DNA from: an uncultured Gammaproteobacteria bacterium
GTDB taxonomy: Bacteria > Pseudomonadota > Gammaproteobacteria > SZUA-229
DNA length: 64,000 nucleotides
NCBI GenBank assembly: GCA_963759005.1
Contig: CAVWXQ010000014.1
Span: forward strand, 23,655 to 87,654
Direction: 5' to 3'
The notes under the pieces were generated by a model. It worked only from the letters and a program-made list of their open reading frames with translations, was not told the DNA's origin and did no database searches. Position 1 is the stretch's first letter. Each line of letters opens with the position of its first letter. This document shows, piece by piece, positions 1 to 35,471 of the stretch. A program made the translations under genes and the position numbers.

Positions 1-373
1 TCCTCAGCACACGTGCCAGGCTGATCTCGTCGAAGGCAGGGTGTTTGCGCCCGTTCTCGTGAACATGACCGTAGACCTTGGTCAGTTCGCTCCAGCGGAT
101 ATCCGGCGGCTGCACGCCACCCTCGGGGCGGCCCAGGCCATCGGGGCCGTGGCAACTCGCACAGGGCACAGCGCTGGCCGGCAACGATACCCCTTCCGTG
201 CCTACGATGGCGGTGATTTGCCCATCAGTAGAACTGGTACCCTGCAGGTAGATTTGTTTGCCCCGGCTCTGTGCCGCGTCCGGAGCTGCCGAAACCAGGT
301 CCGGACCAAGAACCATCGTTAGTCCGACCACGGCAAGTGCGAGTCGTTGGCGGATGCCGTATGCTGAGCTCAT
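1..373 (-). CDS. c-type cytochrome, partial (3' end runs off window start)
   Basis: Minus-strand ORF with ATG at 371-373. Translation MSSAYGIRQRLALAVVGLTMV... looks like a signal peptide and carries the heme motif CASCH. Not in the ORF track because it is open at the window edge. Confidence 0.6.
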   Translation of the reverse strand, partial: MSSAYGIRQRLALAVVGLTMVLGPDLVSAAPDAAQSRGKQIYLQGTSSTDGQITAIVGTEGVSLPASAVPCASCHGPDGLGRPEGGVQPPDIRWSELTKVYGHVHENGRKHPAFDEISLARVLR

Positions 374-1006
374 TCTGGACTTTCTTCCGCCAGGTCGCGC
401 ATCTTGTTCGCGATATCCGGCGGCGTAAGCATCGGCATCACACGGGTCCAGTGTTTGGTGATCGTGTTGCCAGCCAGCATCAGCGTGGTGTGCGATTCGA
501 TATCGGGCGTGTACTGGCCCAGCCGCTTGATCAGGAACTCGATGTTGTCTTTCTCACCCGTCAGGAAAATCCAGCGGCTCTCGTCCACGCTCTGCTTTTT
601 GGCGAACGCTTTCATCGCTTCCGGGGTGTCGCGCTCCGGGTCGACGCTGAGCGTCACGTACCAGACTTCATCCTTGATCGACGGCACCATCGCTGCGCGC
701 GCCTGCTTGAGCTTCTGTGCCTGCATCGGGCAGGCGAATTCGCAGTTGGTGAAGATGAAACTGATCAACACCACGCGGCCCTTCAACACGTCGCTGTAGA
801 AACGCTGTTTTTTGCCGTTCTGGTCGATCACCTCGGTGTCGGTGAAATAGTTGCGTGCCTTTTCCTCTGCTGCCGCGTCACTGGACGGTATTTGACACAG
901 CTGCAGCACTGGACAGGGGAACACTATCCTTAGACAGGACAGCTTGCGGAAGCAGTGCCAGGCCAAGACACAGCACTACTATTAGATTACTCAACTTTTT
1001 CATCAT
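370..1006 (-). CDS. SCO1/SenC family copper chaperone, probable frameshift near N-terminus
   Basis: Thioredoxin-like Sco motif FTNCEFACP in the 370..966 ORF. An ATG-ATG at 1006/1003 sits right after the upstream gene stop and encodes the signal/anchor MMKKLSNLIVVLCLGLALLP, but in another frame that ends in a stop. Confidence 0.65.
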
Positions 1007-1699
1007 TTAACCTCCTGCTGCAACGTTGCGTGCAGCCTGTAATGCATTGACCTGCTCCACCAGCCGGTCCGGACTCGGAAAACCGAAGAAACGTGACCAT
1101 TCGCCGGTCTGACCATCGCCGACCAGCACCATGGCCGGGTGGTTCTCGAAATTTGGTGTATAGGCGCCGAGGCCGTCGAGCACCTTGTCCATCGTCCGCT
1201 TGCCGCCGGTCAGCCAGATCCAGCCCGGTTCGGCCTTGTGGATAGCCGCGTAGGCCTTGAGCCGCTGCGGTGTGTCGCGCACGGGGTCGACGCTGACCGA
1301 AACCAGCACGACCTCGTCACCGAGCTGGTCGCCGAGCTTGTTCTGCACCTGGCCGAACACGGCCGAGATCACCGGACACACCGTGGTGCAACTCGTGTAA
1401 ATGAAATCCATGACCACGATGCGGTCGCCGATCACGTCGCTGACGAATTTCATTTCGTCGCCGTGCTGGTCCATCAGCACCAGGTCCAGCAGTTCCACCT
1501 CGGTAGTCTTGGCCGGTTCGGCCGGCTTGTTCATCATCGCCTTGTGGTGGGCGTGGGGATCGTCGTCGCCGCTCGCTGCGTGATCATGATGCTCGTGATG
1601 TTCGTGCCCGCTGTCTTCTGCTTGGACGTTCAGCGCAAGCGTACCCGCGGCAATAAACAACACCGCTAATATCATATAATTCTTACATTTATAAAACAT
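1007..1699 (-). CDS. SCO1/SenC family protein with His-rich N-terminal region
   Basis: Motif YTSCTTVCP (CxxxC). His-rich stretch HEHHEHHDHA...HAHH. Signal peptide present. Confidence 0.8.
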   Translation of the reverse strand: MFYKCKNYMILAVLFIAAGTLALNVQAEDSGHEHHEHHDHAASGDDDPHAHHKAMMNKPAEPAKTTEVELLDLVLMDQHGDEMKFVSDVIGDRIVVMDFIYTSCTTVCPVISAVFGQVQNKLGDQLGDEVVLVSVSVDPVRDTPQRLKAYAAIHKAEPGWIWLTGGKRTMDKVLDGLGAYTPNFENHPAMVLVGDGQTGEWSRFFGFPSPDRLVEQVNALQAARNVAAGG

Positions 1700-2011: not shown

Positions 2012-2974
2012 CTATTTGTCCTCCGGCCGCTCCAGCGCGATCAGGATCTCGACCTCGCCCTGCTCGCGCAGACGCACGATTTCCTGTTCAACCGCAGCTT
2101 CCATTCGTTCCTCGCGCATATGGTCTCGCAGCTTTTCTCGAATCTCGTCCAGCGGCAGCAGGTAGGCCTCCTTGTGCTCCTCCAGCTTCAGGATGTGCAC
2201 GCCGAAAGGGGTCTCCACCGGGTCCGATATTTCGCCGGGCTTCAGCACGAATGCGGCTGCTTCGAACGCCGGCGCCATTTCGCCGCGCTTGAACAGGCCG
2301 GTATCGCCGCCGTTCTGTCTGGTCGCATAATCATCCGAGAACTCGCGCGCGAGCTCCGCGAAATCTTCGCCCGCACGGGCCCGTTCCAGGATCGGCTTCA
2401 TCTGTTCGCGGATCGCGGCCTTGTCGTCGGTCGTGCCCATCGGCTTCCAGGTCAGCAGGATGTGGCGCACGCGCACCTGCTCCGGGAACGTTAGCCGGAC
2501 CTCATTGTCGCGATAGTATTGCTCGAGGTCTTCGTCGCTGACCTCGGCCACGCTCAGGCGGATGTCATCGAGGTATTTCTTGGCAGCGATCATGCGCCCC
2601 ACGTGCTCGCGGTAGCTCTCCGGCGTGAAACCCTCGCTCTGGATGCGCCGGTTGAATTCATCCGGCGTCTTGAACGGCTGGCTGATCTCGTCAATGGCCC
2701 TGTCGACCTCTGCATCGATGACCTCGATACCTTTGGTCTCCGCCGCCTGGCACACGAGCTCCTGCTTAATCATTTCGTCCATGGCTTCCTTGCGCAGCTT
2801 GGTTAGCCTGTTCAGGTGGTCGCCCCGCCCGGCCACGCTGATACCGTACGGGCGGCGGTATTCCTGGTAGAACGCGTTGAATCGCTCGTAGCTGACCTCG
2901 ACCCCGTTCACGCGCGCCGCGGTGCCGGGATAAATGCCCGTCGCCCAGACCGAGGCAACGGGCGTGACAAGCAA
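2012..2974 (-). CDS. PpiC/parvulin-type peptidyl-prolyl cis-trans isomerase (SurA/PrsA-like)
   Basis: Parvulin domain recognised in translation (for example ...GDTGLFKRGEMAPAFEAAAF...PFGVHIL). The signal peptide RILLLLLVTPVASVWA lies upstream in frame, but only a TTG start is available. Confidence 0.75.
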   Translation of the reverse strand: MLVTPVASVWATGIYPGTAARVNGVEVSYERFNAFYQEYRRPYGISVAGRGDHLNRLTKLRKEAMDEMIKQELVCQAAETKGIEVIDAEVDRAIDEISQPFKTPDEFNRRIQSEGFTPESYREHVGRMIAAKKYLDDIRLSVAEVSDEDLEQYYRDNEVRLTFPEQVRVRHILLTWKPMGTTDDKAAIREQMKPILERARAGEDFAELAREFSDDYATRQNGGDTGLFKRGEMAPAFEAAAFVLKPGEISDPVETPFGVHILKLEEHKEAYLLPLDEIREKLRDHMREERMEAAVEQEIVRLREQGEVEILIALERPEDK

Positions 2975-3013
2975 CAGCAGCAGAATTCGTAGCGCCGCAA
3001 AACCGCATGGCTG

Positions 3014-5068
3014 TCAGGAACCACCCTCTGCCGCAGCCTGTGGCGCGGTTTTGCCGCCCTGGGACGGCGTGCCCATCAGGCTGAAGAACGGTATGTCGTT
3101 ATACATCATCTTCTCCGACTGCGAGCCCACGAACACGTAATACGTTACCATGCGTTCGATTTTCACATCGGCCTCGTAGACGCCACCACCGAGCGATTTC
3201 GCCGGCACGACCGTGCGTCCGCGACCGTCTGAGCCGTAGTACAGCACCGTGACATCGGGAATATCATGCCGCGGCAGCGTGGTGCGTGGATCGGTCAGCT
3301 TGAACTTGACCTTGGTGCTCTCGCCCACCGGTATACGCCGATCGGTGTTCAGGTATTCGATGTCCATCGGCGCCGTGGTGACCTCGATGTCGGGATTGGG
3401 TTCCACCTTCGCGCTGAAGCAGTGCAGGAAGCGCGGTGTGTCCATCATGAAGGCGACGTCGTAGGTGCCCTCGATCGGGATCTTGACCCGCCCGACATAG
3501 ACGCCGGGCTCCTGTTCGCCGAGGCTGCGGTCGACGATCTCGATCGCGCGGGCCTCGTGGCCGTAGTTGCGGAACGCGCCCATGGGCGCGGCCATGCCCT
3601 CCATGTAATAATGAACCGTGCCCTCGGCCTGGTTCACGATGTAGGCCGCGGCCTGCTTGACCGAAGGCACGATGCTGTCGGCGATGCTGATGTCCGCGGC
3701 CGTGCCGGGCGGGCGCTGGCCGGCCGGGACGTAGGTGATCGGCGGGACGCTGTCCTCGTCGAGCTCGGACACCGGTATCAGGCCGACGTCCTGCGTGCCC
3801 AGCGAGCGCACATAGCCGTAGCCGCGCGTGAAGTTGACCTGGTACGGCTGCTTGCCGACGGTGATCGAGTGGGCGAGCTGGTCCTTGGAGGCGTCGATCG
3901 CGAACACCAGGTTCTCGATCGGGTTGACCACGAGCCCCCAGCGACCGTCCTGCGAGAAGCGCATCGGGCCCAGGCCCGGCTTCGCCTCGATGCGGGCGCG
4001 AATCTCGTGCTTGTCGGCATCGATCACGCTGATGATGCCGGTCTTGCCGTCGGCCACGTAGACCGCGTCGCCCAGCGGCGAGTACGCAATCGAGATCGGT
4101 ATCGGCCCGGTTTCGAGGTCCTTGACCTTCTTCAGGGACTGCACGTCGATCACCGAAACCGTTCCCGTGTCGCGGTTGGTCACGAACGCGTAACTGTCAT
4201 CTTCGTTGAACGTGATCTCGTGGTGCCCCGTGCCGGTCGCAATGAACGCGACCTTTTTGAGGCTCTCGGTATCGATCACGGTCACCCCGCTGTCGGCGGC
4301 TTCGTTCGAATTGTTGCCGACCCAGAGGTAGCGCTCGTCCCCCTGCAGCACGGCCCGCGTCGGGTTGTAGCCGGCCTCGATATTGTTCACGACCTTGAAC
4401 GTCTCGGTATCGACCAGCGCGACCATGTCGGCGGTCGGCATGGACACGAACAGGCGCTTCTGGTCTTCGGTCTTGGCCCAGTCCGCGCCGGGCCGGTCGA
4501 GGCTGATCTGGGCGAACAGGTTGGTGATGCCGGTAATGCCGACGGCAGGGTCGATCACCGAGATCGAATCATCGCGGTTCAAGACCAGCAGGAAGTGGCT
4601 GTTCAGGTCGATCATCGGGCGCACGCCGACGATGCCCTGCAGATAGGTCGAAACCCGGTCCTCGCAGCTCATCGGTCTTTCACCCTTGGCTTCCCAGGCC
4701 AGGGCCAGGTCCATCCAGGCGGCCGGGTAGCGTCCCTTGATCGGTTCGCCGGTGTTGGCATCGGTGATGCGGAAGCTCACGTCGGCCCAGTCGGCCGCAA
4801 TCACCTTGTCGGCCGTTGCATCCGTCGGACGCGTTGAGAACTCGACCACAACACCCTCGCGGCTGATGCGGTTAAGCTCGTCTTGTACAGCGGCGGCTTC
4901 GGAGCCAGCGTCTGCGCTTTGCGGCACGCTGGCGGTAGCAGCAGCGTTATCAGCGGCCGCGATGGTTTCGGCGCCGGCAGGGGTGCTCGGCGAGCAGCCC
5001 TGCAATGCGGTGGACATCAGCAGGGCAAGTGTTGCCCCCTTTAGTAAGGTATTCAGTGAAAATTGCAC
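3014..5068 (-). CDS. YVTN-family beta-propeller repeat lipoprotein
   Basis: Lipobox LQGC. Repeated roughly 40-aa units ending ...VTNRDTGTVSVID / ...YVADGKTGIISVID. Confidence 0.7.
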   Translation of the reverse strand: MQFSLNTLLKGATLALLMSTALQGCSPSTPAGAETIAAADNAAATASVPQSADAGSEAAAVQDELNRISREGVVVEFSTRPTDATADKVIAADWADVSFRITDANTGEPIKGRYPAAWMDLALAWEAKGERPMSCEDRVSTYLQGIVGVRPMIDLNSHFLLVLNRDDSISVIDPAVGITGITNLFAQISLDRPGADWAKTEDQKRLFVSMPTADMVALVDTETFKVVNNIEAGYNPTRAVLQGDERYLWVGNNSNEAADSGVTVIDTESLKKVAFIATGTGHHEITFNEDDSYAFVTNRDTGTVSVIDVQSLKKVKDLETGPIPISIAYSPLGDAVYVADGKTGIISVIDADKHEIRARIEAKPGLGPMRFSQDGRWGLVVNPIENLVFAIDASKDQLAHSITVGKQPYQVNFTRGYGYVRSLGTQDVGLIPVSELDEDSVPPITYVPAGQRPPGTAADISIADSIVPSVKQAAAYIVNQAEGTVHYYMEGMAAPMGAFRNYGHEARAIEIVDRSLGEQEPGVYVGRVKIPIEGTYDVAFMMDTPRFLHCFSAKVEPNPDIEVTTAPMDIEYLNTDRRIPVGESTKVKFKLTDPRTTLPRHDIPDVTVLYYGSDGRGRTVVPAKSLGGGVYEADVKIERMVTYYVFVGSQSEKMMYNDIPFFSLMGTPSQGGKTAPQAAAEGGS

Positions 5069-5530
5069 AGATCAACTCCTCGGTCGTTTTATCTATTTGT
5101 TCAGCGTGGAAAGTATTCCATGTCGGGTGGCGAGGTGTCGAAGAAGGATGTGAACCCTTTTTCACCATGCACGGCAGGTTGAAACATGGACTCTCCTTAT
5201 CGTTACGCTGTTACAGTCATATGATTATAAACTATCCGGTCATCACCAGGGCAGACTTGTGAACACGCTTTGATTCCCATCGCAGCAGTCAACATCGATC
5301 AGTTCTGATTGCCATCCTGGCCCGACAGTATTGCCGTGTTTCCTCAACACTGTGTTTGCCATATTACTGATGCCCATTAGAGGCGAGAGTTCAACCGCTT
5401 ATAGCTTGCTGAAGCTAAGCCTAAGTTGGGACATATTACAGCTGCGGTGCGCACGGCGCACCCTACGTTTCCTGTCACTTCTATCCAGCCCTCAGCCGGA
5501 TGTAATCGGTACGCATAGCGCAGCCTGCTT

Positions 5531-5559
5531 CAAAAAAATGGGTGCAGCCTCCTGGCTGC
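5531..5559 (-). terminator. rho-independent terminator after the multicopper oxidase gene
   Basis: On the minus strand: stop (5571-5573), 11 nt, hairpin gcagcc-agga-ggctgc, then acccattttttt. Confidence 0.5.
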
Positions 5560-5570
5560 ATCCACATGTT

Positions 5571-8500
5571 TTATTGTGCGGCCCGTCCGTTGGGCCGCAG
5601 ATGGAATGCTACTACGGCGTCGCTGGACTCCACCCTCAGGATACCGAACTGGCCGTTGCGGTTACCGTTGGGCTGTAGTCGCGGAACAGGTAGTCACCCT
5701 CAACCGCACCGCTACCACCGGCATTGAACAGGATCGGCCAGTGACCGTAGGCGTGGCCCATGCCTTCCTCGCCGCCCATGTACTTGGCCGATCGGGTTCA
5801 GACCGAGCGCGATGGAATCGACCGTGCCATGAGTCCAGACACAGGCCTGTCAGACCGAGGTCGTTCTCGACCCGGGCAGACGAACGGATCGCGCTGCCAC
5901 ACGTGGCCGTGCAGGATGAAGGTACCGTCACGGTCAGCCGAGGCGCCGTTGAGCACGTGGATGCGGCTGGCCTGCTCCGGCAGTCGCCCGGAACACCGGT
6001 GTTGCCGGATCACCCGCTGCGCTCACGCCCGGGATCGCCGGGACTGCGTTGGGCTCGCCGATGGTCAGCAGGTTGGCGTACATCGCCTGCGCGTTCGGGA
6101 TGCGCCGAAGCTGTTGGGCGTACCGGCGTTGCCGAAGGGCACATCCGGCGGCAGTTTGAAGCGGAACCAGCTCGGCTCCATGCCGTAGTTGAAGCCGGCG
6201 AAGCCGCTGTCCTCGGCGCCTTCACGGCCCAGCTCACCCTGGTGGATGTTGGCGATCGCGGTGCCGTCCTTCCAGCGGATATTGGCGATCTTGTGACCGA
6301 TCGCAGGTTCTCGCGGAAGTCACCGCCGGAACCGGCTCCACCGACAGGCGCGGTCACCGTGACCTGGGCGCGGGTCAGGCGTGTCCAGCCGGATTCAGCG
6401 TGCCGTCTGCATTGACCGCCATCTGGCCATCAGGCACCTGGGTGTCCTCTGCCACGGTTGAACCGGGCGGCAGGATCGACAGCGCACCGAACAGACCCTT
6501 CTGCGGCTGCTTGACGCGGTCCGCCGACAGCAGGTTGCTGGCGCCGAACTCGATCGGGGTAGCCACCAGCTCGAGCAGCTCGGTGTTGCCCTGCTGACCG
6601 ACCGTGTTGTAGGTCAGGTCGCCCGCGTACCAGCGGTAGGTCCTGGAACTCGCCGGGCGCGACGATCTGCTGGCCCGGCGCGTTCTGGCCGACCAGGACA
6701 CCGTCGTCACGGCTGGCGTCGTACTCGACCAGCTGGGCGTGCAGACCGACGTGGCTCGACGGCCGGATCAGGTTGTTGTTGAAGAAGTGCATCTCCGGCA
6801 ATGCCGGTGACCGGATCAACCTGGATCCTGCGCTTGACGATCCACATCATGTCCTGCCAGCCGGCCAGGTCGGGCGCGACCGCCGGGATGCGGTTGCGCA
6901 GCGTGGTCTCGATGCAGTCGCCCGCGTTGGCGCGCAGCGCGATCGGCTCGACCGGAGCAGTATCGCTCAGACGAACCGGACAGGTTGGTGCAGCCAATGG
7001 GTCAGCTAACGGCAGGCCCGTTACCGGATCCAGACAACCGGGGTCGGCCGGATCTATAACGACCAGATCACTGGTGCGGACGTACATCATCGCGGTCGGA
7101 TCGTTCAGCGGACCGTCGCCGCCCTGCAGCGTGACCGGCGGCTCGCCGCCTTCACCCGGCAGGGTCAGCGTCGGTACCGTGGTACCACGACGGTTGTAGA
7201 CCAGCGTGCCGCCGGCGGTATTCAGCGGACCACCGTTGTTGTCGCGATACCGTCACCGTTGGAGTCGCCACCCACGTTGGCCGGGATGGTCACACCGAGG
7301 TTGTTCGGCAGCACGTCGTTGGCCAGTACCGCGGTCACGTCATAAGCCGACCACGTTCGGCGGTCATCCGGGCAGACGCCGTTGAACTCGTTGGCGTTGA
7401 CCACGCGGCGGTTGCCGGCCGGGTTGCTCGGCAGCTCGACGAGGTCCTGTTGACGGTTGCCGTAGGCGCGCAGGATACCCCAGGGGCCGGTCCAGAAACC
7501 GTCGCGGGTGGCGTCGGTCGCGTACAGGTAGTCGACCGGTTGCCGACCTGATTCCGGATCCGGGTTGATCGGGATCTGCAGGCTGAACTGCTCGGAGATA
7601 CCGTGCGACTGGAAGTTACGCCAGCCGGAGTTCGGCGAGCGGCCGAAGCCGGAGCCGTTGGACAGCCACTTCATGCCGTGCACGGTCGCCTGGTGCTGCT
7701 CCTCGGTGGCGCCGACCTGGATCTTGATCTTGACGTCGTCACCCTCGTAGGCACGCATGATCGGCGTGATCGGGTCACCGCGCCGGCGGTCGCAGTTGAT
7801 GCCGTCGCCGGTGTTGCCCTGGCAGTACGTCGCCGGGGTCCGGTAGCCGGGCGGCATGTCGCCGAAGCTGGTGTTCAGCTGCGGGATCGCGCGGTCGCTG
7901 CGGCTCTGCAGCGCGAACGCGAGGTCGCCGGCTTCACCGGCCGCCTGGGTACCGTTCTGGCCGTCAGGACCGGCCGCGTTCGGATCGAACACGCGCAGGC
8001 CCACCGGCTCGTTGCGGTAGTTGACCACGAACATCGAGCTGTGGCTGATGTTGATGGCCTCGGCGCAGGGACGCGGCACGTTCGGATCGGCATTGCCGGC
8101 CGGTCCCGGGCAGACGCCCTCGGCCGTGACCATGTCCGGGAACGGCACCGACTTCAGCTTCAGCGGCGGATTGATCGCCTGCTGCCAGGTGTCCTGCATC
8201 GTCGGGCGCGAAGGCCGTGGTGACGTCGAACGCGAACGGGCTGATCGATGTGCGTCTGGACCGGACGACCATCCGCGATCGGCACCGACGTAGACACCGG
8301 CCTCGTAGGCGTGCTGGAAGTCGCTCATCTCGAAGTAGAACTCGCGATGATCCGGGATGTTCTCCGAGCCCGTGGTGCTACCCAGTGGCGCCTGGCAGGC
8401 GTCATGATGATCGCCTGCCAGGTGGTCGGGCCACCGTCGTGCACGCGGAGCCGGTCTGCCGTCGACCAGCGCGCCGATCTGCGCGCCGCTCTCGTTGTGC

Positions 8501-11500
8501 ACCCAGGTCGAACCGGCCGGCTCGGCCAGGATGGTCGAGTACAGGCCGATCTGCTGGAAGGTCGACGGACCGTAGTGGTCGTGCGAGAAGGTCAGGCCGA
8601 GGCCGCGGTCCACACCGGCCACGTTGACCAGCGGGTCCATCAGGATGCGCTGGATGTGGTGCGCGCGCCGCAGTATTCACCATAGGGCTCGACGTCACAG
8701 TGCCGCCGACACCGGTCACCGAAGAACGGATGCGGCTTGCGGCGTGCAGCTCGGTCACGCCAGCGCACGACGCTGCTGCCCGGGTCACCGGTGTCGATGG
8801 TCGGCACCGGGGCCAGATCGGTCAGGTCAACCGTGGTGGTTGGCCACCGCAGCGACCAGGTCGGGCGGCAGGTCGTCGGCCTTGCCGAGCGCGACCAGCA
8901 GGTCAACCAGGTTGGGCGCTTGACCGGCCAACGCGTTGAAGTGGTTGATCGCGTTGATGCGCTCCTCCACCATGCCCGGCGCCAGCGTGCCGTCCTCGTA
9001 GTTCCAGCCGTTGGCCGCACCGTCGTTGGTGGTCAGGTCCCACTTCGGCAGGTGGATGTGCTGACCGATGATGTCGGTCGGCGTGCGCACCTGGAAGTCG
9101 TCCAGCTCGAACTCCTTCGGCACCAGGTTGGTGTGCAGGATCTTGCCGCAGTCGAAGGTGTTGAAGCGCATCACCAGCGGCTCCGGCGGACGCTGCTTGG
9201 CGATGGTCGGCGCCACGTCGTCCCACAGCGCGATGATGCGCTCCTGCGGGTAGTGCTAGCCGACCTTGTTGAACACCGCGTCGATCTGCACGTTGGCGAC
9301 CTTGTAGGTGCGCGGGTTCTCGCAGGTCCAAGTCCGAGCGCGCCCATGTTGCCGCAGCGTACCCTGGTCGTTGTCACCATCGAACCAGTGGCCGATGACA
9401 CCAGCGATCAGCGGGGTGCCCGCGTCGTCGATGCAGGGATCCTGGAAGGGACCGCCCGGTACCGGCAGGGCACCGTTGAGCACGAAGCCGCCGCTGCCGT
9501 CGGGGTTGGCCACGCCGGTTGTCGCGTCACACAGAGCCTCCGAAACGGTGCCGTCACGGTTCTGCTTGTAGGTGTCGCGGCAGCGCACGGCGTGGTAGGC
9601 CATGCGACCTGCTCCAGTCGTCGGTGCCGATCTCGGGGAAGTACACCGGCTGGGCGACCTCGACTTCCTTGGCGAAGTCGAGGCGGCTGTTGGTGTCCAG
9701 CGAGAGGCCGCCGGAGGAGTAGCCGAGCAGGTTGTGGCGCGGCAGGCCGCCGTCCCAGCCGCCGGCCTGCGCCGGTGCGATATCCGTTCGCTGTCGCGCC
9801 GGCCTCGGTCAGCATGTCCAGCGGCGGGGTCGGCATGCGCTGGCCAACCGTGCCCTTCGGGCAGCGGAGTCGTCTGCATGTCGCGTCATCACGCCGCACT
9901 CGTTGCCGGCCAGCCAGAACGGGAAGCCGGGGCTGACGTCGTCGGCGGTACCGAGGTCAGCGTCGGGACCGGCCACGGCGTGCGATAGTCGATCACGGCC
10001 TGGCTCGGACGTTCGGGGATGCCATCCGGGCCTGTCCTGCCGCCCAGCACGCCGAAGTTACCGCGGTCGACCGCGACGACCTTGACCGGGGCAGGCATAC
10101 GGCATGGCCTTGCCGGGCAGCGGCACGATGGCCGGAATCGGCCAGCCGTCGGGCAGCTCGGCGTCGGGCAGCGCGCGGGCGCCGGCCGCCGGCTTACCGC
10201 TGCGCAGCGCCCAACGCGTGTCATGGAAGCCGTCACCGTCGGGTCGGCGTTGCCCGCCATCTGCATCACGGCGCTGTCGAGACGGCCAGCAGGCTGCCGG
10301 TTTCGAACGTGTCCTGGATGCGGATGTGGTACCACATGCCCTGCGCAAAGTGCGGGTAGAAGTGGCAGTGGAAGATCGCGTCGCCCGCGGTCTTGTTGCG
10401 GTTGCCGACGCCGCCGTTGTTTATCTCGTAGGTGTGGCCCGAGCCCGGCATGATTTCCTGGGCGTCCAGGTAGTTGGCGTTGTCGTCGTTCGGGTTGAAC
10501 AGCCACTGGTGGTTGTGCAGGTGGAAGATGTGCTGCTCGAACGCACCGACGTGGATGTTGCGGATCTTGACGAAGTCACCGGTGTAGGAGTGGTGCACGT
10601 TGGACGGGTCTTCCTGGTACAGCGCGTAGTTGCCCGGGATCGGCGGGTTGGCACCGATCGGCGATCACCGCCATTGGACCGGGACGTCGATCGTCGAACT
10701 GACGCCAGCAGGCCGGACGTCAGGATGTCGGTCGGGTCGCACTGCTCGATGCCGGTGTTGGCCGGGAAGTTGACCAGCATGGCCGGGTCGCCGACGGTCT
10801 GCGAGGCGAGGAAGAACTCCTCGTAGGCGCAGTCGGTGCAGTCGTGCATCGGGCCGGTGTGCAGGCGGTTGGCGATGATTTCGGAACCGATGCCGCCGGA
10901 GCCGTAGTTGATCATGAACTGGTCCTTGACGCCGGCCAGGGTGTAGTTCAGCACCGGGTTGCCGTACCAGCGCGGGAACACCTGCGAGTTGGTCTGCTCG
11001 TCGTGGAAGATCGAGGTGAACTCGCGGAACGGCTCGAGCCGGTTCGGCAGGCTCGGCACGTTGTTGCCGACGCTCTCCAGCGGGTAGGTGCTGGCCGGGA
11101 ACGTGTACCGTCGGCATTCGGGCCGGCGATGATCGCGTTGATGTCGCTGTGCACCAGCTCGTTGCCGGCTGTCAGCATGTTCAGGATCGGCAGGCCGGCC
11201 TTGCCCTCGGAGATCCAGGGCTCGACGTTCGGGTAGGTCGCCTCGTAGTCGATGATCGGCTGGCCGAGGCCGGAGTCGTGTCGGTGGTGGCCAGGCGCAT
11301 TTCTTCCTCGGTCACCATGCTGCGGTACATGCGCGCACCGACGGGCTGGACGTTCAGCTCGCCGAACATGCCGATGCCGAGGTTGCCGCTGTTCTGCTCG
11401 CTGCCGAGGGTGGCGCCGTAGCTGTTGATCACGAAGGCGCCTTCGTGCGGGGTGTACAGGTTGTAGGTCCTGGCTCTCGTTCGGTGCTGCCATGCCGAGG

Positions 11501-12069
11501 CCGCAGTTGCGCTGTCCGGCGTCAGTCGGGCCAATGTTCGCGCCGGGGTTGTTACCGACCATGCTGCCGTCGTCGGCGATGTCATCGACCAGCTTCGGTG
11601 CCCGAGGCGTGGAAGCCGGCGCAGCGGCCCGCGACCTGGTCGTTGTTGATCAGCTGGTCCTGCTGCGCATTGTTCGGATTGGCGACCGGCGCCAGCAGGT
11701 TGGTGAAGTTGACCGTCAGGCAGCTGCCCGCGACCGAACGCACCACCAGCGGACGGGGCCGCTTGTCGGGGCGCAGCTCGACGTTGCCTGCGGTACAGGC
11801 TGCCCTGCGAACAGGGCACGCCGCGTCGGTCCCGTCGATGACATCGCGCTCGAGCGCGTAGGTGATCCAGTTCGGGTTCTGCGCACCGAGGCGGTTGAAC
11901 ACCGTCGGGTTGTCCAGCACCACCACGTTGGCGGTTATGGTATTGCTGTACAGCTAACCGCTGCCTGCGCACCCGGCACAAACAGCATGGACAGCATTAC
12001 CATGCATAATATAACAACAGCGAGCAAAATATTATTGTTCGCCATTGGACTGGTGGCTTGAGTTTTCAT
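5571..12069 (-). pseudogene. giant multicopper oxidase (MnxG/MofA-like), about 2160 codons, at least 12 frameshifts
   Basis: ATG at 12067-12069 with RBS ggagag and signal peptide MKTQATSPMANNNILLAVVILCMVMLSMLFVPGAQA. Cupredoxin-like pieces are spread over three frames, including FHCHFYPHFAQGMWYH (T1 Cu site), IFHLHNHQW, IGQHIHLPKWD and HGMKW. Confidence 0.7.
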
Positions 12070-12117
12070 TATAGCTCTCCTATTTCTTTTTGGAGCAACG
12101 GATTCTGTCTAAACCTG

Positions 12118-12401: not shown

Positions 12402-13121
12402 CTACTCACTTACCGAGGTGGTGCTGAACAAATAGCCAAGCCAGGGTATATCCATCAACAGCGGGATACCCGCCCTGCCCTCGTTGCGAGTTTCGAGGAT
12501 CAGGCCACCGAGCACCACAGTCGCACCGCTCTGCACCACGACACTGCTGCTGATGCTGCGCTGTGAAATCGCCACATTGCCGCCGCCGCCGACAGCCGGC
12601 TCTGAACCGGGAAGGCTGACTTCCTGGCTGATTTCCATGGTGACCTGGCCGCCGGCGTTGATGCGCGGAGTGACGGACAACAAGGTGCCGGTGTCACGAA
12701 ACTGCACCTCAGAGACCACCGGGGCATCCGGGTTTGTGGTACTCTGGGAACTGCGCACGGTGACCGGTATCTGGTCACCCACGCGGATATTCGCGGTATG
12801 GTTGTCCAGCACCATGATCTGCGGCGCCGAGAGGAATTTGACATCGGTCTTACTGGCCAGCAGGTCAATAAACATCCTGGCATCATTGCTGCTCGAAAAC
12901 GTGGCCAGTGTCAGGCCATCACCACCAGCAGCGGTGGGCACCGGTGCGTTGAAGCCCAGACTGGTGTTGCCGCCGGAGAGGAACCAGCGCACGCCGTAAT
13001 CCAGCGCATTGGAAAGGGTCACCTCGGCGATGGTGGCCTCGATCAGCACCTGGCGAGGCTGCTCATCGAGCTGTTTAATGACGGCTTCGATGCCACGGTA
13101 ATCCCTGGGACTGGCCAGCAA
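12402..13121 (-). pseudogene. secretin (GspD/PilQ family) C-terminal domain fragment
   Basis: VLIEATIAEV, SAPQIMVLDNHTANIRVGDQIPV and IPLLMDIPWLGYLF match secretin C-domain motifs. Frame closed by tag/tga immediately upstream, so the N-terminal two-thirds are absent. Confidence 0.75.
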
Positions 13122-13127: not shown

Positions 13128-13476
13128 CTACCTGAAAACGACCAGCGAAGCGCTGGCCGCCGCCAGCCTGCAAGGTATCGTCAAGAAAATCGCGGCATCG
13201 ACAGGCATGGAAGTGCTAAGCACCCAGATCCTGCCTGCAGGCGAGCAAGAGGGTTTCAAGCGTGTCACCCTGAAGGTTCGTATGCGCGGCGTGCTGGAAA
13301 ACACAGTAAAGGCATTCCACGCCATGGAGACCGGCCAGCCGTATCTGTTTCTGGACAATGTCTCAATCCGCGGCCTTGCCCGGCGTACAGGCAACTATGG
13401 CAAAGGCAAAGTCAACTATGATCAAATGCTGAATGTGGATTTTGATCTCATCGGCTACATGCAGCAGCAATCATGA
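13128..13476 (+). pseudogene. PilO/GspM-like C-terminal fragment
   Basis: Open frame ...LQGIVKKIAASTGMEVLSTQILPAGEQEGFKRVTLKVRMRG...YLFLDNVSIRG with no N-terminal TM part. Abuts the inverted secretin fragment. Confidence 0.35.
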
Positions 13477-13530: not shown

Positions 13531-13947
13531 TTGTCGGCTGGTGTACTGGCAATCGAGAGCGGTAACCTGATCGAGACACAAGGCCATGCCTCGCCCGAAA
13601 CACAGCCTGCTGTCGATCCGATTGAGCAGGCAAAATTCACTGCATCAGGGATTGCCGCATTCAGCGAAATCACCGAACGACCGTTGTTCAGGGAAGGTCG
13701 TGAGCCACCGAGCGAACCCACAGCCACACCCGTGGCAGCCAGGCCGTCACCACTACGCCTGAAGCTGGAAGGCGTGGCCATTACACCTGGATCAAAAATT
13801 GCCATACTGCGCGATCTCAGCAACAACAAGATGCTGCATCTCGAAACTGGCATGAAACACCAGGGCTGGGAACTCACCTCTGTTACCGACACCGTCGCCA
13901 CATTCAAGCTTGGCGAACAGAGCCAGGAACTGACGCTAAAAAAATAG
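13531..13947 (+). CDS. PilP / GspC-HR-like pilus/secretion assembly protein
   Basis: ITERPLF motif followed by a beta-rich C-terminus ...LEGVAITPGSKIAILRD...LTSVTDTVATFKL. Confidence 0.4.
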   Translation: MSAGVLAIESGNLIETQGHASPETQPAVDPIEQAKFTASGIAAFSEITERPLFREGREPPSEPTATPVAARPSPLRLKLEGVAITPGSKIAILRDLSNNKMLHLETGMKHQGWELTSVTDTVATFKLGEQSQELTLKK

Positions 13948-14013: not shown

Positions 14014-14263
14014 CACATCAAGCCCGGATATTTCATAGGAACGCTGCTAATCTTGCTTAACATTATGATTATTATAAGAAATAGCAGTATATTAGAGAAG
14101 TACACTATGTACCTGACAACGCTATGCAGTTTTTGGAAAAATATCAGCGGCCATTTTGTACGATACCCCTGTAACCATAGCTACGGCTATGCTTTTCGGC
14201 GAATAGTACAAACTGACTCACTGATATTTCCCCAAAATTCTGCATTCCTATGAAATATCCGGG
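14014..14263 (+). mobile_element. MITE copy 1 (about 250 bp, 19-bp TIR CCCGGATATTTCATAGGAA)
   Basis: Perfect terminal inverted repeats. Near-identical copies at 21903, 33239 and 40022. Confidence 0.7.
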
Positions 14264-14289
14264 CTAGCACAATCGAAGCAATGCGCCAG

Positions 14290-21830: not shown

Positions 21831-21902
21831 CTACACACTAACCATTACCAACACCTTGTTATTCTGTGGATTGAATAACTACATTGAGGAATCTCTAATT
21901 AA

Positions 21903-22318
21903 CCCGGATATTTCATAGTAATGCAGAATTTTGGGGAAATATCAGTGAGTCAGTTTGTACGATTCACCGATAAAATCGTAGGAACGATTTTACATGAGCG
22001 AAGCGAGCCCGTAGGGTTAATGGGCAGGAGGCCCGTAATTAAAGCATAGCCGTTCGGCACACCGCTTCGCTGCTCCATGCATTGCCCTACTACCGTACTT
22101 CCTATACATAAGCTATGGTTACAGGGGAATCGTACAAAATGGCCGCTGATATTTTTCCAAAAACTGCATATACTGCCATGGATGGCAGGTAGTAGGGCAA
22201 TGCAGGAGCTATTGCCGAGCATTGTCAGGTACATAGTGTACTTCTCTAATATACTGCTATTTCTTATAATAATCATAGCGTTAAGCAAGATTAGCAGCGT
22301 TCCTATGAAATATCCGGG
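21903..22318 (-). mobile_element. MITE copy 2 with about 170 bp of nested insertions
   Basis: Same TIRs in inverse orientation. Contains extra internal segments that are inverted repeats of each other (gcattgccctactacc / ggtagtagggcaatgc). The terminal ...GGGTT overlaps the TAA stop of the ada-like gene. Confidence 0.7.
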
Positions 22319-23173
22319 TTAAGTTGACAATCCAGTTCTCGCCGCCTCCCATAGATGAATTGCGTGCTTTCGAGTCTCGCCCCAATGATAGCCACCAAGA
22401 TTTCCGCTTTGTTGAATAACACGATGACAGGGTATAAGAAACCCAATCGGGTTTGAACCGATAGCCCTGCCAACAGCACGGGCTGAATTTGGACGTCCAA
22501 TTGAAGCAGCCACCTGAGAATAACTCACTACTTTGCCCATTGGAATATCAAGCAAAGCCCGCCAGACACTTACCTGAAAATTTGTACCAGAGACCAGTAA
22601 AGATAATGGGCGGTCTTTATCATTTTCTATAGCGAACATTGAATCGATAATTTCAGCTGTATGTTTGCTGTTGTTTATTAACTGCGCATAAGGCCAGCGC
22701 TTCACAAGATCTTTAATTTCCTGTTCAGCATTGCTCTCTTCAGGAAATGAAAATTTACAGATCCCTCGTGGCGTAATAGCAATAAACGCGCTGCCAAATA
22801 CCGTTTCATGAACCGCATACTCAATAGTCAGGCCACTGCCCTGCGTTTTAAATTCACCTGGCGTAACTGCCTCGAGACTAACAAAGTGGTCGTAAAGTCT
22901 CGAGCCGCTACTCAACCCGACTTCATGCGTTACCTCTAATATGGGTTTAGCCTCTTGCAGCAATTTTTTTGCGCGTTCTACGGTAAGAACCTGTAAGAAT
23001 CTTTTTGGGGTAACGCCTGCCCAACGCGTGAACATCCGCTGAAAATGATAAGAACTTAAATGAACATGCGCTGCTATTTCATCCAGGGTTGGCTGTTGCC
23101 CAACCTGATTAGTTACATAATGGATAGCTTTCGCGATTCGTTCATAATCCGACATATTTCTTATGTCCCGCAA
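22319..23173 (-). CDS. Ada-like bifunctional AraC-type regulator / methylated-DNA-protein-cysteine methyltransferase
   Basis: AraC HTH in the N-terminus. MGMT active site IPCHRVI in the C-terminus. Confidence 0.8.
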   Translation of the reverse strand: MRDIRNMSDYERIAKAIHYVTNQVGQQPTLDEIAAHVHLSSYHFQRMFTRWAGVTPKRFLQVLTVERAKKLLQEAKPILEVTHEVGLSSGSRLYDHFVSLEAVTPGEFKTQGSGLTIEYAVHETVFGSAFIAITPRGICKFSFPEESNAEQEIKDLVKRWPYAQLINNSKHTAEIIDSMFAIENDKDRPLSLLVSGTNFQVSVWRALLDIPMGKVVSYSQVAASIGRPNSARAVGRAIGSNPIGFLIPCHRVIQQSGNLGGYHWGETRKHAIHLWEAARTGLST

Positions 23174-23716: not shown

Positions 23717-24022
23717 TTATAACTCACCCGACTCGTCCACTTCAGTAATCCAGTACATCCCCTTACCTGTAAACGATATACCCGAACCACGAAGCTCATC
23801 CAGTAAAGTTTTCGCGCGGGCATCTTCCAGAATCACATCAACACGCACCTGAGGCACATAACCCACCACTTTATCCCGAGCCGATAAAAAAGCATCCTGC
23901 TTTAATTGCGAGCTATGCTCTTCGATATGACTGAACATAAAACTGTCCAGCTGCAGGCTACGCAAACAGTCAGCCAGTTCCTGTTGCAGTGATGTATGCA
24001 CCACGATGGATAATTTTTTCAT
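23717..24022 (-). CDS. DUF3240-like P-II-fold protein, typical 3' partner of HME-RND pumps
   Basis: About 100 aa. Position overlaps the RND stop by 4 nt. I recall this family as a small P-II-like protein downstream of czc/cus pumps. Confidence 0.5.
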   Translation of the reverse strand: MKKLSIVVHTSLQQELADCLRSLQLDSFMFSHIEEHSSQLKQDAFLSARDKVVGYVPQVRVDVILEDARAKTLLDELRGSGISFTGKGMYWITEVDESGEL

Positions 24023-27000
24023 GCTGAGACCTCCACTTTTTTCACCCGCATCTTTTTCTCTAATGCTTCTTCTACCCAGGCATAGAGTGCCGGCAGTAAA
24101 ATCAATGTCAGGATGGTTGAGGTAAACAGGCCGCCAATCACCACGACGGCGAGTGGCTGCTGCAGTTCAGAGCCGGGGCCGGTCGCTGTCAGCAGGGGCA
24201 ATAAACCAAAGCTGGCTATCATGGCTGTCATCAGTACCGGTCTTAATCGTCGTTCAGCGCCCCGTCTTACCGCTTGCTGAATACTTAAACCCCTTTGCCT
24301 TAGTTGATTGAAGTAACTCACCATCACCACACCATTGAGTACCGCAACACCAAACAGGGTAATAAAACCTACCGATGCCGGTACCGACAGATAAAGTCCG
24401 GAATAATACAAACTGACGACACCGCCAATCATAGCGAAAGGGATGTTCAGAATAATCACGCCTGCCTGTAACAGCGAACGGAAAGTGGTAAACAACATGA
24501 AGAAAATAAGCACTATGGCAACAGGTACCACCAGAGCCAGTCTGGTTGATGCACGCTGCTGGTTTTCGAACTGACCACCAAAGGTAACATAATAACCCGT
24601 AGGCAAGTCCACTTTTTCTTCTATCTTACGACGTACTTCCTCGACAAAACTGACCACATCGCGGGCCTCTACATTTGACTGGATAACCACCAGACGTTTG
24701 GCCGATTCACGTATAATCTGAACCGGTCCATCCACCACTGTCACTTCGGCCAGGTGTCCCAGAGACACTTTAGTACCATTGGGTAAACTCACCAGCATTT
24801 TTTTAATGGCTGCCGCTGAGCTGCGATCTTTTTCCTGATAGCGCACCAGGATGCCGACACGACGATTATTTTCCAGTAATTCGGTCACCACCTGGCCACC
24901 GACTGCGGTTTCTACTAACCTGTTAATGTCTTCAACATGGATGCCATAACCGGAAATCACGTCCTGATTGATGTCGATCTGTAAATATTTCTGCCCTGAA
25001 ATATCAGCACGAAACACGTCTACTGCACCCGTTATATTATTCACCAGTTGTTCAATTTCGATGGCTTTCTGCTCCAGTACAAACAGATCATCACCATAAA
25101 GTTTGATTGCCATGGCAGAACGCACACCGGTTAGCATTTCTGATACGCGCATATCGATTGGCTGACTGAAGGCGTAATCAACATTATCAAAAGGGGCTAA
25201 TTTTTCACGCAAATTTTCCTGGAACTGTTGCAATGAAATATTCCATTCTTCCTGTGGTTTTGTCACCAGAAAATTATCGGTCTGATTTAAGCCCATTGGA
25301 TCCATGCGTAATTCATCAGCGCCTGTTCGCGAGGTGACGCCAATCACTTCAGGCAGCTCCATCATGGCTTTTTGAATCGGTGCGTCCATTTCCAGCGATT
25401 TTTCCAGGGTGATACTGGGATCTTTTTCTAACAGGATAACGGTACTGCCCTCATCCATGATCGGCATAAATTCTTTACCGATATGAGGGAACAGGGTTGC
25501 TGTTGCAAACAGCGCCACCAGCGCTAACCCTACCGCCGTTTTTCTATAACGTAGCGCCCAGTTCATCGCCGGTAAATAAATGATTTTCAGCACTCGCATA
25601 AGACGACCATCTGTGTCTGCATTTTGGGCCTCGGCCAGCGCATTTTCGGCCTGCTTTTCATCGTCCTGTTTTTTCGCCTGTTCATTCGGTTGATTTTGGA
25701 CATGAAGTTTCATAAAGAAACTGGCCAGCACTGGAATCACGGTTAATGACATTATTAACGAACCAATCAGGGCAAAAGTAATGGTAATGGCCAGCGGCGA
25801 AAACATTTTCCCTTCCAGTCCGGTCAGGCTAAACAATGGCAGAAACACAGCCACAATAATCAGTATGCCGGAAATAACCGGCGACGATACTTCCAGCACC
25901 GCGCGATAAACAAGGTGCAATTTATTAACACCTGCAGGCGCTTTACTGAAATGGCTATGAATGTTCTCCACCACCACGACGGCGGCATCAACCAGAATGC
26001 CAATAGCGATTGCCAGCCCGCCTAGTGACATCAGGTTGGCAGATACATTGAACAGCTTCATCATAATGAAGGTAAACAACACGGTTAACGGCAAAATTAA
26101 TGCCACCGTTAACGCACTGCGGATATCACCCAGCATAATAATTAACACCAGCAATACCAGCACAACGGCTTCACCCAGTGCTTTTTCCACCGTCCATACT
26201 GCCTTGGTAATCAGCTCGGTTCGATCATAAAACGATTCGATGCTAACGCCTTCAGGCAAAATAGCTTTTAATGTTTCCAGTGCTTTTTTAGTTTCTGCTA
26301 CCGTCTGTAAACTGTTGGCGCCTTTACGCAACAGAACCAGTCCGGTGACGACTTCACCCTCGCCATCAGCAGTTACCGCGCCATAACGTGTCATACTGCC
26401 AACGCGCACCTCGGCTACATCACTAATATGTATCGGTTCACCATAAAGTGTGCGTACGGTTATGTTCTTAATGTCGTCCACGTTGTTTAATTTTCCGACC
26501 GTACGCACCAGTAATACTTCATCGTTCTGGTTGATGCGATCACCGCCAGCATTGCGGTTACTCTCCATCAGAGCATGCTCTATTTCGTCGATACTGATGC
26601 CGTGTTTAACCAGCGTTTTCGGTTTGATAACTACTTCATAGGTACGAACTTCACCGCCCAGTGAATTAACATCTGCCACCCCTTCTACTTTGCGCAGATG
26701 CGGACGGATGACCCAGTCCTGCAAACTGCGCAATTCCTGGTTGCTATAACTCTTGCCGCTATCATCGCCGCTGTTGGTGTCGTAGTTATGGCCGATAATG
26801 CGATACATAAATATCTCACCCAGTGGGGTGGTAATGGGAGCCAGACCACCTTCAATATCGGCCGGTAATGAATCCCAAACCTGGTTGAGTCGCTCTGTCA
26901 CCAGATTACGCGCCAGATAAATATCCATGTCATCTTCAAAGTCGACAACAATCACACTTAATGCATATTTTGTTGTTGATCTAAGTACGGTCTGTCCGGG

Positions 27001-27228: not shown

Positions 27229-27229
27229 T

Positions 27230-33124: not shown

Positions 33125-33238
33125 CAGGAAATAAAAAGTCGGTTACAAAACCACTAAGTTAAGCGCAGGAAAACCAGGTCAGCAATAGTCACTGTATCTA
33201 TTTAGTGCTGCAGTCTCATGAGGGAATGCTTATACGAG

Positions 33239-33395
33239 CCCAGATATTTCATAGGAACGCTACAGCTTTAACTTAACATTATGATTGTATTGAGAAATAT
33301 TGGCATATTAGCAAAGCACACTATGTACCCGATAACGCTCGGCAATTGCTCCTGCATTGCCCTACTACCTGCCATCCATGGCAGTATATGCAGTT
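33239..33395 (+). mobile_element. MITE copy 3 (5' portion only, variant with internal insert)
   Basis: Left TIR cccagatatttcataggaacgc plus an internal segment identical to the insert in copy 2. The right end is missing. Confidence 0.5.
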
Positions 33396-33472
33396 GCTCG
33401 GGAATTATGGCTAGAACACATTACGCCCATAAATGGGCACAATGTTCACAACATATCTAGTGTAAGCCCCTA

Positions 33473-35065: not shown

Positions 35066-35471
35066 AGCCTACCTCCTATATATCTGGTGCACTAATCACT
35101 CAAAGCGTGATAGTTTAACCTCAAATTAGTGTAAACGACCGCCTCCCTGATGTTCTTGTTCTATGTCAAACTTTCGCTTCGTTTTCTGGCGAAGCATACG
35201 TAAGCCTCGGCTAATACTGTAACTACCAGCGTGCTCGCTTTGGTTCGGTTAAGGCATATTCACAGACGCTAACGATAATGGGTCAACTACTGTCTGTTAG
35301 CTATAGCTAGTATTAAGAGCAGCTAACAGTCTCTCTTGGGTCGATAGCTGCCTGTTCGATGCAAGTAATATTAGAATTATCTAACTGTCGCCTTTGGTTC
35401 CACAACGCTCTATCAGCTCAGTATCATGACCGCGGATAAGCGGCCAATAACGCCCATTCAAGATCAAAGGC

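Follow-up and report, generated by a model that had tools for sequence, protein, structure and literature searches.

A full-length homologue of MnxG-type multicopper oxidases interrupted by about 32 frame switches on a GC-rich island of a gammaproteobacterial genome

Genomic setting of the locus

The window analysed here is a 64,000-nucleotide stretch of a contig from an uncultured gammaproteobacterium (GenBank assembly GCA_963759005.1). On its minus strand, between positions 5571 and 12069, it carries a gene of approximately 2,150 codons that is homologous over its full length to MnxG-type manganese-oxidizing multicopper oxidases (MCO) and in which the frame switches about 32 times, counted net, and one TAG codon occurs. 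The gene runs from an ATG at 12069 to a TAA at 5573-5571. A Shine-Dalgarno-like AGGAG can be read in the sequence 7 nt upstream of the ATG (12077..12081, minus strand), and the first codons specify a Sec-type, signal-peptide-like leader (MKTQ...VPGAQA; 11962..12069, minus strand) that ends in AQA at a cleavage site placed by eye and is homologous to the leader of the L001 orthologue. The GC content of this leader is below that of the rest of the gene. An initial annotation of this DNA had described a promoter-proximal ribosome-binding site and signal peptide; these two elements are indeed present, but no sigma-70-like promoter was found upstream on the gene's strand. The clean terminator that it had also described corresponds to an intrinsic-terminator-like hairpin followed by a T-run directly after the TAA (5560-5543, minus strand).

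Five operon genes lie downstream within the window, all on the minus strand and all free of frameshifts. Nearest is a gene for a YVTN-type beta-propeller of 684 aa (3014..5068), a conserved operon partner of mnxG with matches in both Pfam and NCBIfam and zero frameshifts against three references. It is followed by genes for a SurA/PpiC-type peptidyl-prolyl isomerase (PPIase; 2012..2974), a SCO1/SenC copper chaperone-like protein (1007..1699) and a second SCO1/SenC-like protein (370..966), and by the cut 5′ part of a gene of approximately 535 aa; each of these aligned to homologs in a single frame. The earlier statement that the YVTN and PPIase neighbours lack frameshifts therefore stands. The same operon order and orientation (YVTN propeller, PPIase, SCO1/SenC) is found at loci L001, L004, L005, L010, L012, L020 and L084-L116. 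Upstream are a truncated GspD secretin, of whose ~730-780 residues only the C-terminal ~240 remain, in one frame (12402..13121, minus strand), and a truncated gspM, or T2SS-M, fragment. The other ~57 kb show long intact ORFs, and searching the whole window for Rfam families and tRNAs gave no hits.

The operon and the upstream fragments are located on an island of 59-68% GC in a genome of approximately 44% GC, with a GC3 of 0.75-0.86 compared with 0.43-0.52 in the host, and the island is absent beside the conserved glycosyltransferase in relatives of the host. Positions 2810-4810 share 96.9% nucleotide identity with L084, the closest relative, with no coding indel. Synonymous divergence to L084 falls from ~0.21 to ~0.05 inside the YVTN gene, and this shift marks a recombination or mosaic boundary within that gene near 4.5-4.8 kb. 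We considered a chimeric origin matching the frameshifted patch and rejected it, as the boundary lies in the YVTN gene, away from the border of the MCO, and the two do not exactly coincide.

Family assignment of the frame-corrected protein

After frame correction, the protein could be aligned end to end with 19 homologues. It has 84% amino acid identity to L084 and 50-51% identity to orthologues from Pseudomonas, Azoarcus and related bacteria, with which it is collinear over its whole length. The NCBIfam profile for MnxG, NF041487, matched the corrected protein with 1864 bits (E=0), short of the equivalog cut-off of 3100 bits; among intact genes, the close relative L005 scored 1948 bits and the Pseudomonas orthologue L022 scored 3892 bits. 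As both the window gene and its intact close relatives fall below the cut-off, they form a separate sediment-gammaproteobacterial subfamily, and judging by these profile scores the window gene is homologous to the NF041487 proteins but, as part of a sister subfamily, not an equivalog. The only Pfam match was to Cu-oxidase_2, with 17-19 bits on the fragments or the corrected protein, under the gathering score of 20.4. The original call of a giant multicopper oxidase is thus borne out in substance by membership of the MnxG family under NF041487, while its cupredoxin match in Pfam remains sub-threshold.

The window gene has the candidate copper-ligand motifs HCHFYPHFAQGM, HLHNHQW, SHDHYG and HIHLPKWD, all of them conserved. 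Both motifs that had been named previously were recovered on the minus strand: the copper-site motif FHCHFYPHFAQGMW (HCH...H....M), which was read intact in the sequence at 10332..10373 within a fragment covered by the weak Cu-oxidase_2 match, and HIHLPKWD, which is intact at 9037..9060 and kept in homologues.

In genomes and metagenomes, over 100 orthologues each form one uninterrupted ORF; these comprise 67 complete ORFs in genome loci and all close metagenome loci, and the exception among those fully covered by their contig is L011, a Nanopore-derived MAG locus with one break. No near-identical copy was found in the genome and metagenome collections scanned, in which the best match was L084 (84% amino acid and 85.8% nucleotide identity), nor was a second mnxG copy found within the window. 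The collections contained no independent assembly of the gene, and looking up the exact sequences of four proteins from the window gave no match.

Number, type and context of the lesions

Using our own frameshift-aware protein-to-DNA alignment against nine different intact references, we counted 29-32 frame switches, well beyond the minimum of 12 frame-shifted pieces first recognised, and MnxG-type sequence does run on through all three minus-strand frames, as had been proposed. The approximate switch positions on the minus strand are 11945, 11593, 11472, 11269, 11105, 10714, 10679, 10665, 10268, 10099, 9989, 9864, 9782, 9619, 8835, 8653, 8439, 8392, 8274, 8240, 8206, 7244, ~6805-6829, 6651, 6385, 6314, 6093, 5975, 5875, 5838, 5795 and 5673. 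Nucleotide alignment to L084 revealed 39 gaps of a length not divisible by three, including two compensated +1/-1 pairs inside seemingly intact ORFs (7551/7539 and 8720/8702). The first of these pairs is hidden in the longest open piece (472 aa; 7222..8640, minus strand), which has several switches near its 5′ end. The absence of evident in-frame nonsense codons noted initially did not hold: an in-frame TAG at 9256..9258 (minus strand) replaces a conserved Tyr that is encoded by TAC or TAT in every homologue matchable at the site.

The lesions are nearly all 1-2 nt long, and insertions outnumber deletions. Where homologue length is fixed, there were ~12 events of +1, 3-4 of +2, 6 of -1 and 1 of -2; the nucleotide alignment to L084 gave 15, 3, 10 and 4, respectively. 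Homologue alignments contained no deletion longer than 2 nt in length-conserved regions, large deletions are absent, and the overall length of the gene is kept (6,499 nt, against 2,130-2,190 codons in close relatives). Spacing of the switches is Poisson-like, with a CV of 1.03.

Sequence context did not distinguish the switch sites. The longest homopolymer per switch bracket averaged 2.16, compared with 2.21 at random positions (P=0.76), and no motif, repeat or palindrome was associated with the sites. No 4-mer was convincingly enriched at them, the best being AGTC with a nominal P=0.008 among ~136 tested; an association with GATC/CGATCG, examined in the same motif enrichment, was not significant. 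The gene contains no run of five or more identical bases, and we considered this depletion as a possible sign of a run-collapsing chemistry; intact orthologues have only 0.1-1.5 such runs per kb, so the depletion is not anomalous. At the five exactly placed sites the extra bases were mixed (G, T, C, C and G), and on this ground we discarded an editing-like signature, in which one type of base would be inserted or missing throughout. Switch sites fall in somewhat less conserved stretches (0.62 vs 0.73, P ~0.001), a difference to be read in light of the aligner favouring placements with low mismatch cost.

Constraint on the frame-corrected protein

The corrected protein differs at 3 of 428 family-invariant residues, compared with 2-5 in intact peers at equal distance; two of the three differences are L->I and the third abuts a frameshift. 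At 85%-conserved columns, 11 of 690 residues differ, compared with 13-25 in intact peers. The branch is not accelerated, as each of the seven outgroups is closer to the window gene than to its sister L084. If substitutions had accompanied indels at ratios of 10:1, 5:1 or 1:1, we would expect 47, 24 or 4.7 extra changes at invariant residues, respectively, whereas the observed excess is approximately zero; similarly, 7.6 stop codons would be expected at 10:1, and one is observed. The lack of any excess at invariant residues together with the lack of branch acceleration implies that indels equal or outnumber substitutions. These results agree with the earlier remark that many indels with few substitutions are unlike natural decay, and because substitutions do not exceed indels, ordinary pseudogene decay and slippage are rejected.

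The same density of lesions (~5 per kb) would be expected to produce ~23 frameshifts in the 4.7 kb of neighbouring genes. The probability of observing none is ~1e-10, and the contrast between the MCO and its neighbours is therefore not due to chance.

Origin of the lesions

We consider it likely that indel-type sequencing or assembly noise, restricted to a patch no longer than 7.3 kb, is the best explanation of the lesions. The pattern is indel-dominated, context-independent and randomly spaced, and the coding information is intact. Of the two origins suggested in the initial annotation, local error is favoured by the context-free, Poisson-spaced indels with their surplus of insertions and their high number relative to substitutions, the preserved constraint and the kept length; a recent burst of slippage mutations is not supported, given the lack of homopolymers at the switches and the occurrence of both insertions and deletions of 1 and 2 nt. 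The noise would be confined to somewhere between positions 5069 and 12401; these limits are outer bounds, because only coding sequence can reveal such noise. The lesion spectrum may be the residue of a weakly corrected long-read consensus, for which a gap-fill or bridge, low coverage, or a region beyond the reach of short-read polishing are candidate sources; alternatively, divergent strains or paralogues merged into one consensus could have generated it. It does not match the spectrum of spontaneous mutation in bacteria. The noise may have struck this gene because no other part of the foreign island is as rich in GC, against 44% in the genome, or because the sample contains multiple copies or variants of the gene. 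Outside the patch the window is free of such errors, and it holds no second copy of the gene to serve as a local cause. The errors would have to be sharply local, with clean GC-rich neighbours; sequencing error is normally blind to gene boundaries, and a special local cause must therefore be assumed. The truncated gspD and gspM nearby also make genuine decay in the region plausible.

The main alternative scenario is that mnxG is a genuine pseudogene, which was inactivated after the GC-rich operon entered a low-GC host and then accumulated ~35 small indels while its neighbours remained under selection. We regard this as unlikely, though several observations are in its favour: the frame is disrupted relative to intact orthologues (29-32 switches and one TAG), the TAG looks like a real nonsense substitution, the lesions end at the gene borders as they would under selection, the GC3 contrast marks the island as foreign, relatives of the host lack it, and the upstream genes on it are damaged (the truncated gspD and the T2SS-M fragment). 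The scenario would, however, require an indel:substitution ratio of ~0.8 or more, compared with ~0.1 in spontaneous bacterial mutation, in which indels occur mostly in runs. The relaxed constraint expected under neutral decay, in the form of excess substitutions and a longer branch, is not seen, and neither are indels in runs or repeats or an excess of deletions; the switch sites have no homopolymer context, deletions are no more frequent than insertions, and no deletion in length-conserved regions exceeds 2 nt, contrary to the deletional bias of bacterial pseudogenes. In addition, no decay is seen in the accessory genes, whose linkage to mnxG extends to all relatives examined.

It is considerably less probable still that the indels are real and arose through a gene-confined process generating only 1-2 nt indels, or, less likely again, that the frame is restored at the level of RNA or translation. 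The first of these, for example repeated break-and-repair or template switching in foreign GC-rich DNA, strikes us as very improbable: only the locality and the indel-only spectrum combined speak for it, whereas the sites show no motif, repeat or palindrome, the neighbours are unharmed although they are just as GC-rich, and we know of no gene-targeted, indel-only mutational process in bacteria. A functional gene whose frame is restored by programmed ribosomal frameshifting, transcriptional slippage or cryptogene-like RNA editing would account for the protein information preserved across all three frames and for the retained RBS, leader and terminator, but we find it scarcely credible given that the shifts lack the uniform direction (+1, +2, -1 and -2 are mixed), the shared slippery or stimulatory motif and the conservation in orthologues expected of recoding or editing (0 of >100 orthologues have any of them), that the extra bases are mixed, that an in-frame TAG is present, and that compensated pairs 12-18 nt apart would serve no purpose.

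Implications

Under the preferred explanation of local sequence noise, the window gene is probably a normal, intact MnxG-type manganese oxidase gene, and Mn(II) oxidation is predicted from its sequence. The organism would then probably possess a Mn(II)-oxidase operon that was acquired horizontally and is intact (mnxG, YVTN, PPIase and two SCO1/SenC genes), and annotating the gene as a pseudogene would wrongly strip manganese oxidation from its inferred metabolism. More broadly, examining a frame-corrected protein for relaxed constraint is a useful check that separates decay from local indel noise. If the indels are instead real, a single gene has gained at least as many indels as substitutions, outside repeats, which would be very unusual; an indel-only process or frame restoration would in that case constitute a mutational or decoding mechanism undescribed in bacteria.

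Comparison with known systems

Multi-lesion pseudogenes such as those of Mycobacterium leprae and host-restricted Salmonella resemble the window gene in having a full-length orthologue, frameshifts, a stop codon and intact neighbours. In these natural pseudogenes, substitutions greatly outnumber indels, deletions predominate and indels occur in runs; the window gene has none of these three features. Its indel pattern resembles noise of the PacBio CLR type. Residual errors that fragment genes and persist where short reads cannot polish have been described in long-read and hybrid assemblies (PMC8812927, PMC12007338, PMC11017572), and residual Nanopore errors mostly concern homopolymer length (PMC8812927). 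The window gene is like these cases in that small indels are many and substitutions few, while the protein is perfectly conserved in other respects; such errors are usually genome-wide, and Nanopore ones are homopolymer-bound, whereas here they occupy at most 7.3 kb and fall outside homopolymers.

Among characterised proteins, the only solved relative is MnxG of Bacillus sp. PL-12 (9bxa_A), to which the close homologue L005 matches in four stretches (E=1.2e-60). The Bacillus protein is distantly related and much shorter, at 1,227 aa, and its MnxEFG complex has no counterpart in the window operon. A closer comparison is provided by PpMnxG, one of the Mn oxidases of Pseudomonas putida GB-1 (bioRxiv 10.1101/2022.11.10.515945), with which the window gene shares the HCH...H....M copper motif; its identity to Pseudomonas orthologues is ~50%, with collinearity over the whole length. 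The sediment-gammaproteobacterial subfamily is ~200 residues longer than the PpMnxG type, and the reading frame in the window is broken ~32 times. Synteny with the YVTN propeller is common to the window and Pseudomonas loci, in which an ORF of ~665 aa follows mnxG, whereas matches to the SCO1/SenC pair, the PPIase and the nearby T2SS genes were confined to the closer gammaproteobacterial MAG loci.

Frameshifts in the multicopper oxidase gene

The multicopper oxidase gene on the minus strand of the window (mnxG, 12069..5571) is genuinely broken in the deposited sequence, and more extremely so than first reported. Using a purpose-written dynamic-programming aligner of protein to DNA that permits 1- and 2-nt frame skips, we found 29-32 frame switches at consistent places against nine different intact references. 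The open frame from the ATG at 12069 is 44 codons long as deposited, and tblastn with homologous proteins revealed strong similarity from 12069 to 5628 across all three minus-strand frames, bearing out an initial annotation of cupredoxin-type sequence spread over three frames; the two motifs quoted there were both found (10373-10332 and 9060-9037). Nucleotide alignment to the closest relative (L084, JGI contig Ga0316198_10003264; 84% amino acid and 85.8% nucleotide identity) contains 39 gaps of length not divisible by three, including 15 of +1, 3 of +2, 10 of -1, and 4 of -2, besides a small number of longer gaps in variable regions. Two +1/-1 pairs, with members 12-18 nt apart, are concealed in open pieces of the gene: one (7551/7539) changes the consensus Q.GN.V to SGRQP, the other (8720/8702) changes GVGGDCDVE, which is the L084 sequence, to DRCRRHCDV, and removing each pair brings back the family consensus and GVGGDCDVE, respectively. 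The true indel count is therefore higher than the number of frame switches, and given the switches, gaps, and hidden pairs, the earlier description of "at least 12 pieces" recognized the fragmentation but greatly underestimated it. That description also held that in-frame nonsense codons were lacking, which is wrong by one: a TAG lies at 9256-9258, where homologues encode Tyr (TAC/TAT).

The gene borders retain the signals described for them, all on the minus strand. A Shine-Dalgarno-like AGGAG (12081-12077) precedes the ATG, a candidate Sec-type leader judged by eye (MKTQ...VPGAQA) spans 12069-11962, and the TAA at 5573-5571 is followed by a hairpin (5560-5543) and a T-run.

Clean sequence around the damaged gene

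Downstream of mnxG, gene order is the same as in relatives: a YVTN propeller gene (3014-5068), a SurA/PpiC-type PPIase gene (2012-2974), two SCO1/SenC genes (1007-1699 and 370-966), and, farthest away, a gene of ~535 aa cut by the window start. Aligned with the same program to three references, the YVTN gene shows no frameshift. Positions 2810-4810 are 96.9% identical to L084 over 2,009 aligned bases, the sole gap being a single base at 2990 in an intergenic spacer. The lesion density of mnxG, about 5 events per kb, would predict some 23 events over 4.7 kb of coding sequence downstream, and none were seen (chance about 1e-10 by our arithmetic); the neighbours are intact, as originally noted. 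Elsewhere in the window, long intact ORFs are numerous; three of them, of 1,115, 1,079, and 1,159 aa, match known families over their full length. The 500-nt spacer between mnxG and the YVTN gene (5069-5570) has lower GC (45-56%), shares no similarity with its 1.2-kb counterpart in L084, and carries small ORFs such as one of 44 aa (5243-5377, minus strand).

Character of the lesions and constraint on the protein

In length-invariant stretches, the net changes were +1 (12 cases), +2 (3-4), -1 (6), and -2 (1), and the total length of the gene is kept despite them. The sites showed no association with homopolymers (mean maximum run 2.16, versus 2.21 at random positions; P=0.76) and no convincing 4-mer enrichment. 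The gene contains no runs of at least 5, which is unremarkable because orthologues have just 0.1-1.5 per kb. Lesion spacing is Poisson-like (CV = 1.03), and the extra bases at five exactly placed sites are G, T, C, C, and G.

We then considered the frame-corrected translation (the window protein) in an alignment with 19 homologues. It is changed at 3 of the 428 columns identical in all others, compared with 2-5 for intact homologues of similar nearest-neighbour distance; two of these changes are L to I, and the third adjoins a frameshift. At 85%-conserved columns it deviates at 11 of 690 (13-25 in the same peers). Across 1,896 ungapped columns it is nearer than its sister L084 to all seven outgroups, and its branch is therefore not lengthened. 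None of these three comparisons indicates relaxed constraint. Random substitutions in the gene's own codons would create a stop in 2.4% of cases and change the residue in 73%, such that substitution:indel ratios of 10, 5, 2, and 1 predict 47, 24, 9, and 4.7 extra changes at invariant residues, and a ratio of 10 predicts 7.6 stops. We observed no excess over background at invariant residues and one stop; the indel:substitution ratio of the lesions is therefore about 0.8 or higher.

A GC-rich island and its boundaries

The mnxG operon lies in a GC-rich island (1 to about 13,950) of 59-68% GC and GC3 0.75-0.86, in a genome of ~44% GC with host GC3 of 0.43-0.52. The island is absent from host-relative contigs that share the adjacent glycosyltransferase (68-86% identical). 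It has the appearance of DNA acquired horizontally not long ago, or possibly of a chimeric join. Upstream of mnxG, just the last ~240 residues of the secretin gspD remain (12402-13121, minus strand), adjoined by an inverted T2SS-M fragment (13207-13476, plus strand) and, beside these type II secretion remnants, an inverted 138-aa ORF (13531-13947, plus strand). In relatives, homologues of this ORF sit beyond the opposite end of the mnxG operon, and the arrangement in the window is therefore rearranged or truncated. An AT-rich host repeat of ~110-250 nt is dispersed in four copies of 78-98% identity, some inverted (14021-14272, 21888-22333, 33230-33410, and 40019-40223), the first of which directly abuts the island edge; the repeat is possibly a MITE or IS remnant and could mark a point of integration or misassembly.

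Within the island, mnxG and the YVTN 5′ end are about 86% identical in nucleotides to L084, which comes from a coastal-sediment metagenome. Synonymous divergence at fourfold sites, about 0.21 over mnxG plus the initial ~300 nt of the YVTN gene, falls to about 0.05 downstream of ~4.5-4.8 kb. The YVTN gene therefore contains a recombination or mosaic boundary, close to the damaged stretch yet off its edge.

The host part of the window has features of its own. Some 3 kb (35100-38100) is almost without ORFs of at least 80 aa, unusually non-coding for a bacterial genome; repeats of this region include a 9-nt tandem repeat (35569-35619), 63-nt units at 34516, 35382, and 37964, and a 32-nt inverted pair at 35976/38761. 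Two MbnH/MauG-type di-haem enzymes (55468-56904 and 59061-60371), a 716-aa multihaem cytochrome-like protein (30225-32375), and CusA/TolC-type metal efflux genes (24019-28573) suggest a neighbourhood rich in metal and redox functions.

Origin of the frameshifts

The frameshift pattern is probably technical rather than biological. Its spectrum matches the noise of weakly corrected long reads, in that indels far outnumber substitutions, insertions equal or exceed deletions, placement is random, and content is otherwise perfect; the source would be residual errors of such a consensus. Previous reports document gene-fragmenting errors of this kind, and their persistence in stretches to which short reads cannot be mapped (PMC8812927, PMC12007338, PMC11017572). 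The earlier suggestion of local sequencing or assembly error fits the spectrum. The weak point is locality, as the coding sequence on either side of the damaged stretch is clean (up to 5068 and from 12402). Three causes are conceivable: GC content peaks here (64-70%) within an island foreign to a 44% GC genome, which may have starved short-read polishing; the gene may be present in more than one copy or strain variant (one relative, L008, carries two tandem copies, 91% identical); or the stretch may have been bridged by long reads.

It is unlikely that mnxG is a real pseudogene whose lesions happen to show an unusual spectrum. Spontaneous mutation in bacteria, as seen in mutation-accumulation work, yields roughly ten substitutions per indel, and the indels fall mainly in runs and favour deletions, long ones included. 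All three expectations fail in mnxG, and ordinary decay is therefore a poor explanation, as is the slippage burst initially offered as one of two alternatives. Exotic processes take up the small probability that is left, and frame restoration by programmed recoding or RNA editing is unsupported, as the shifts run in four directions with differing bases and no common motif, and more than 100 orthologues lack them.

Relationship to known manganese oxidases

Whatever the source of its frameshifts, the gene is a recognizable member of an already known family. A database search with a 472-aa piece (7222-8640) returned about 100 proteins, two of them source-named "manganese oxidase". Scans of genome and metagenome collections recovered 79 and 80 homologous loci, respectively; where the contig spans the whole gene, it is one ORF of 1,950-2,490 codons. 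The genome set holds 67 complete ORFs, close metagenome loci are intact without exception, and the only broken homologue seen, in a Nanopore-derived MAG (L011), has one break. Pfam gives a sub-threshold Cu-oxidase_2 match alone, and the sole relative with a solved structure is Bacillus MnxG (9bxa_A). The window protein matches NCBIfam NF041487 ("manganese-oxidizing multicopper oxidase MnxG") with E=0 and 1864 bits, under the equivalog cut-off of 3100 bits, as are its intact relatives (1948 bits), whereas Pseudomonas orthologues exceed it (3892 bits). The gene therefore belongs to a sediment-gammaproteobacterial subfamily within the MnxG superfamily.
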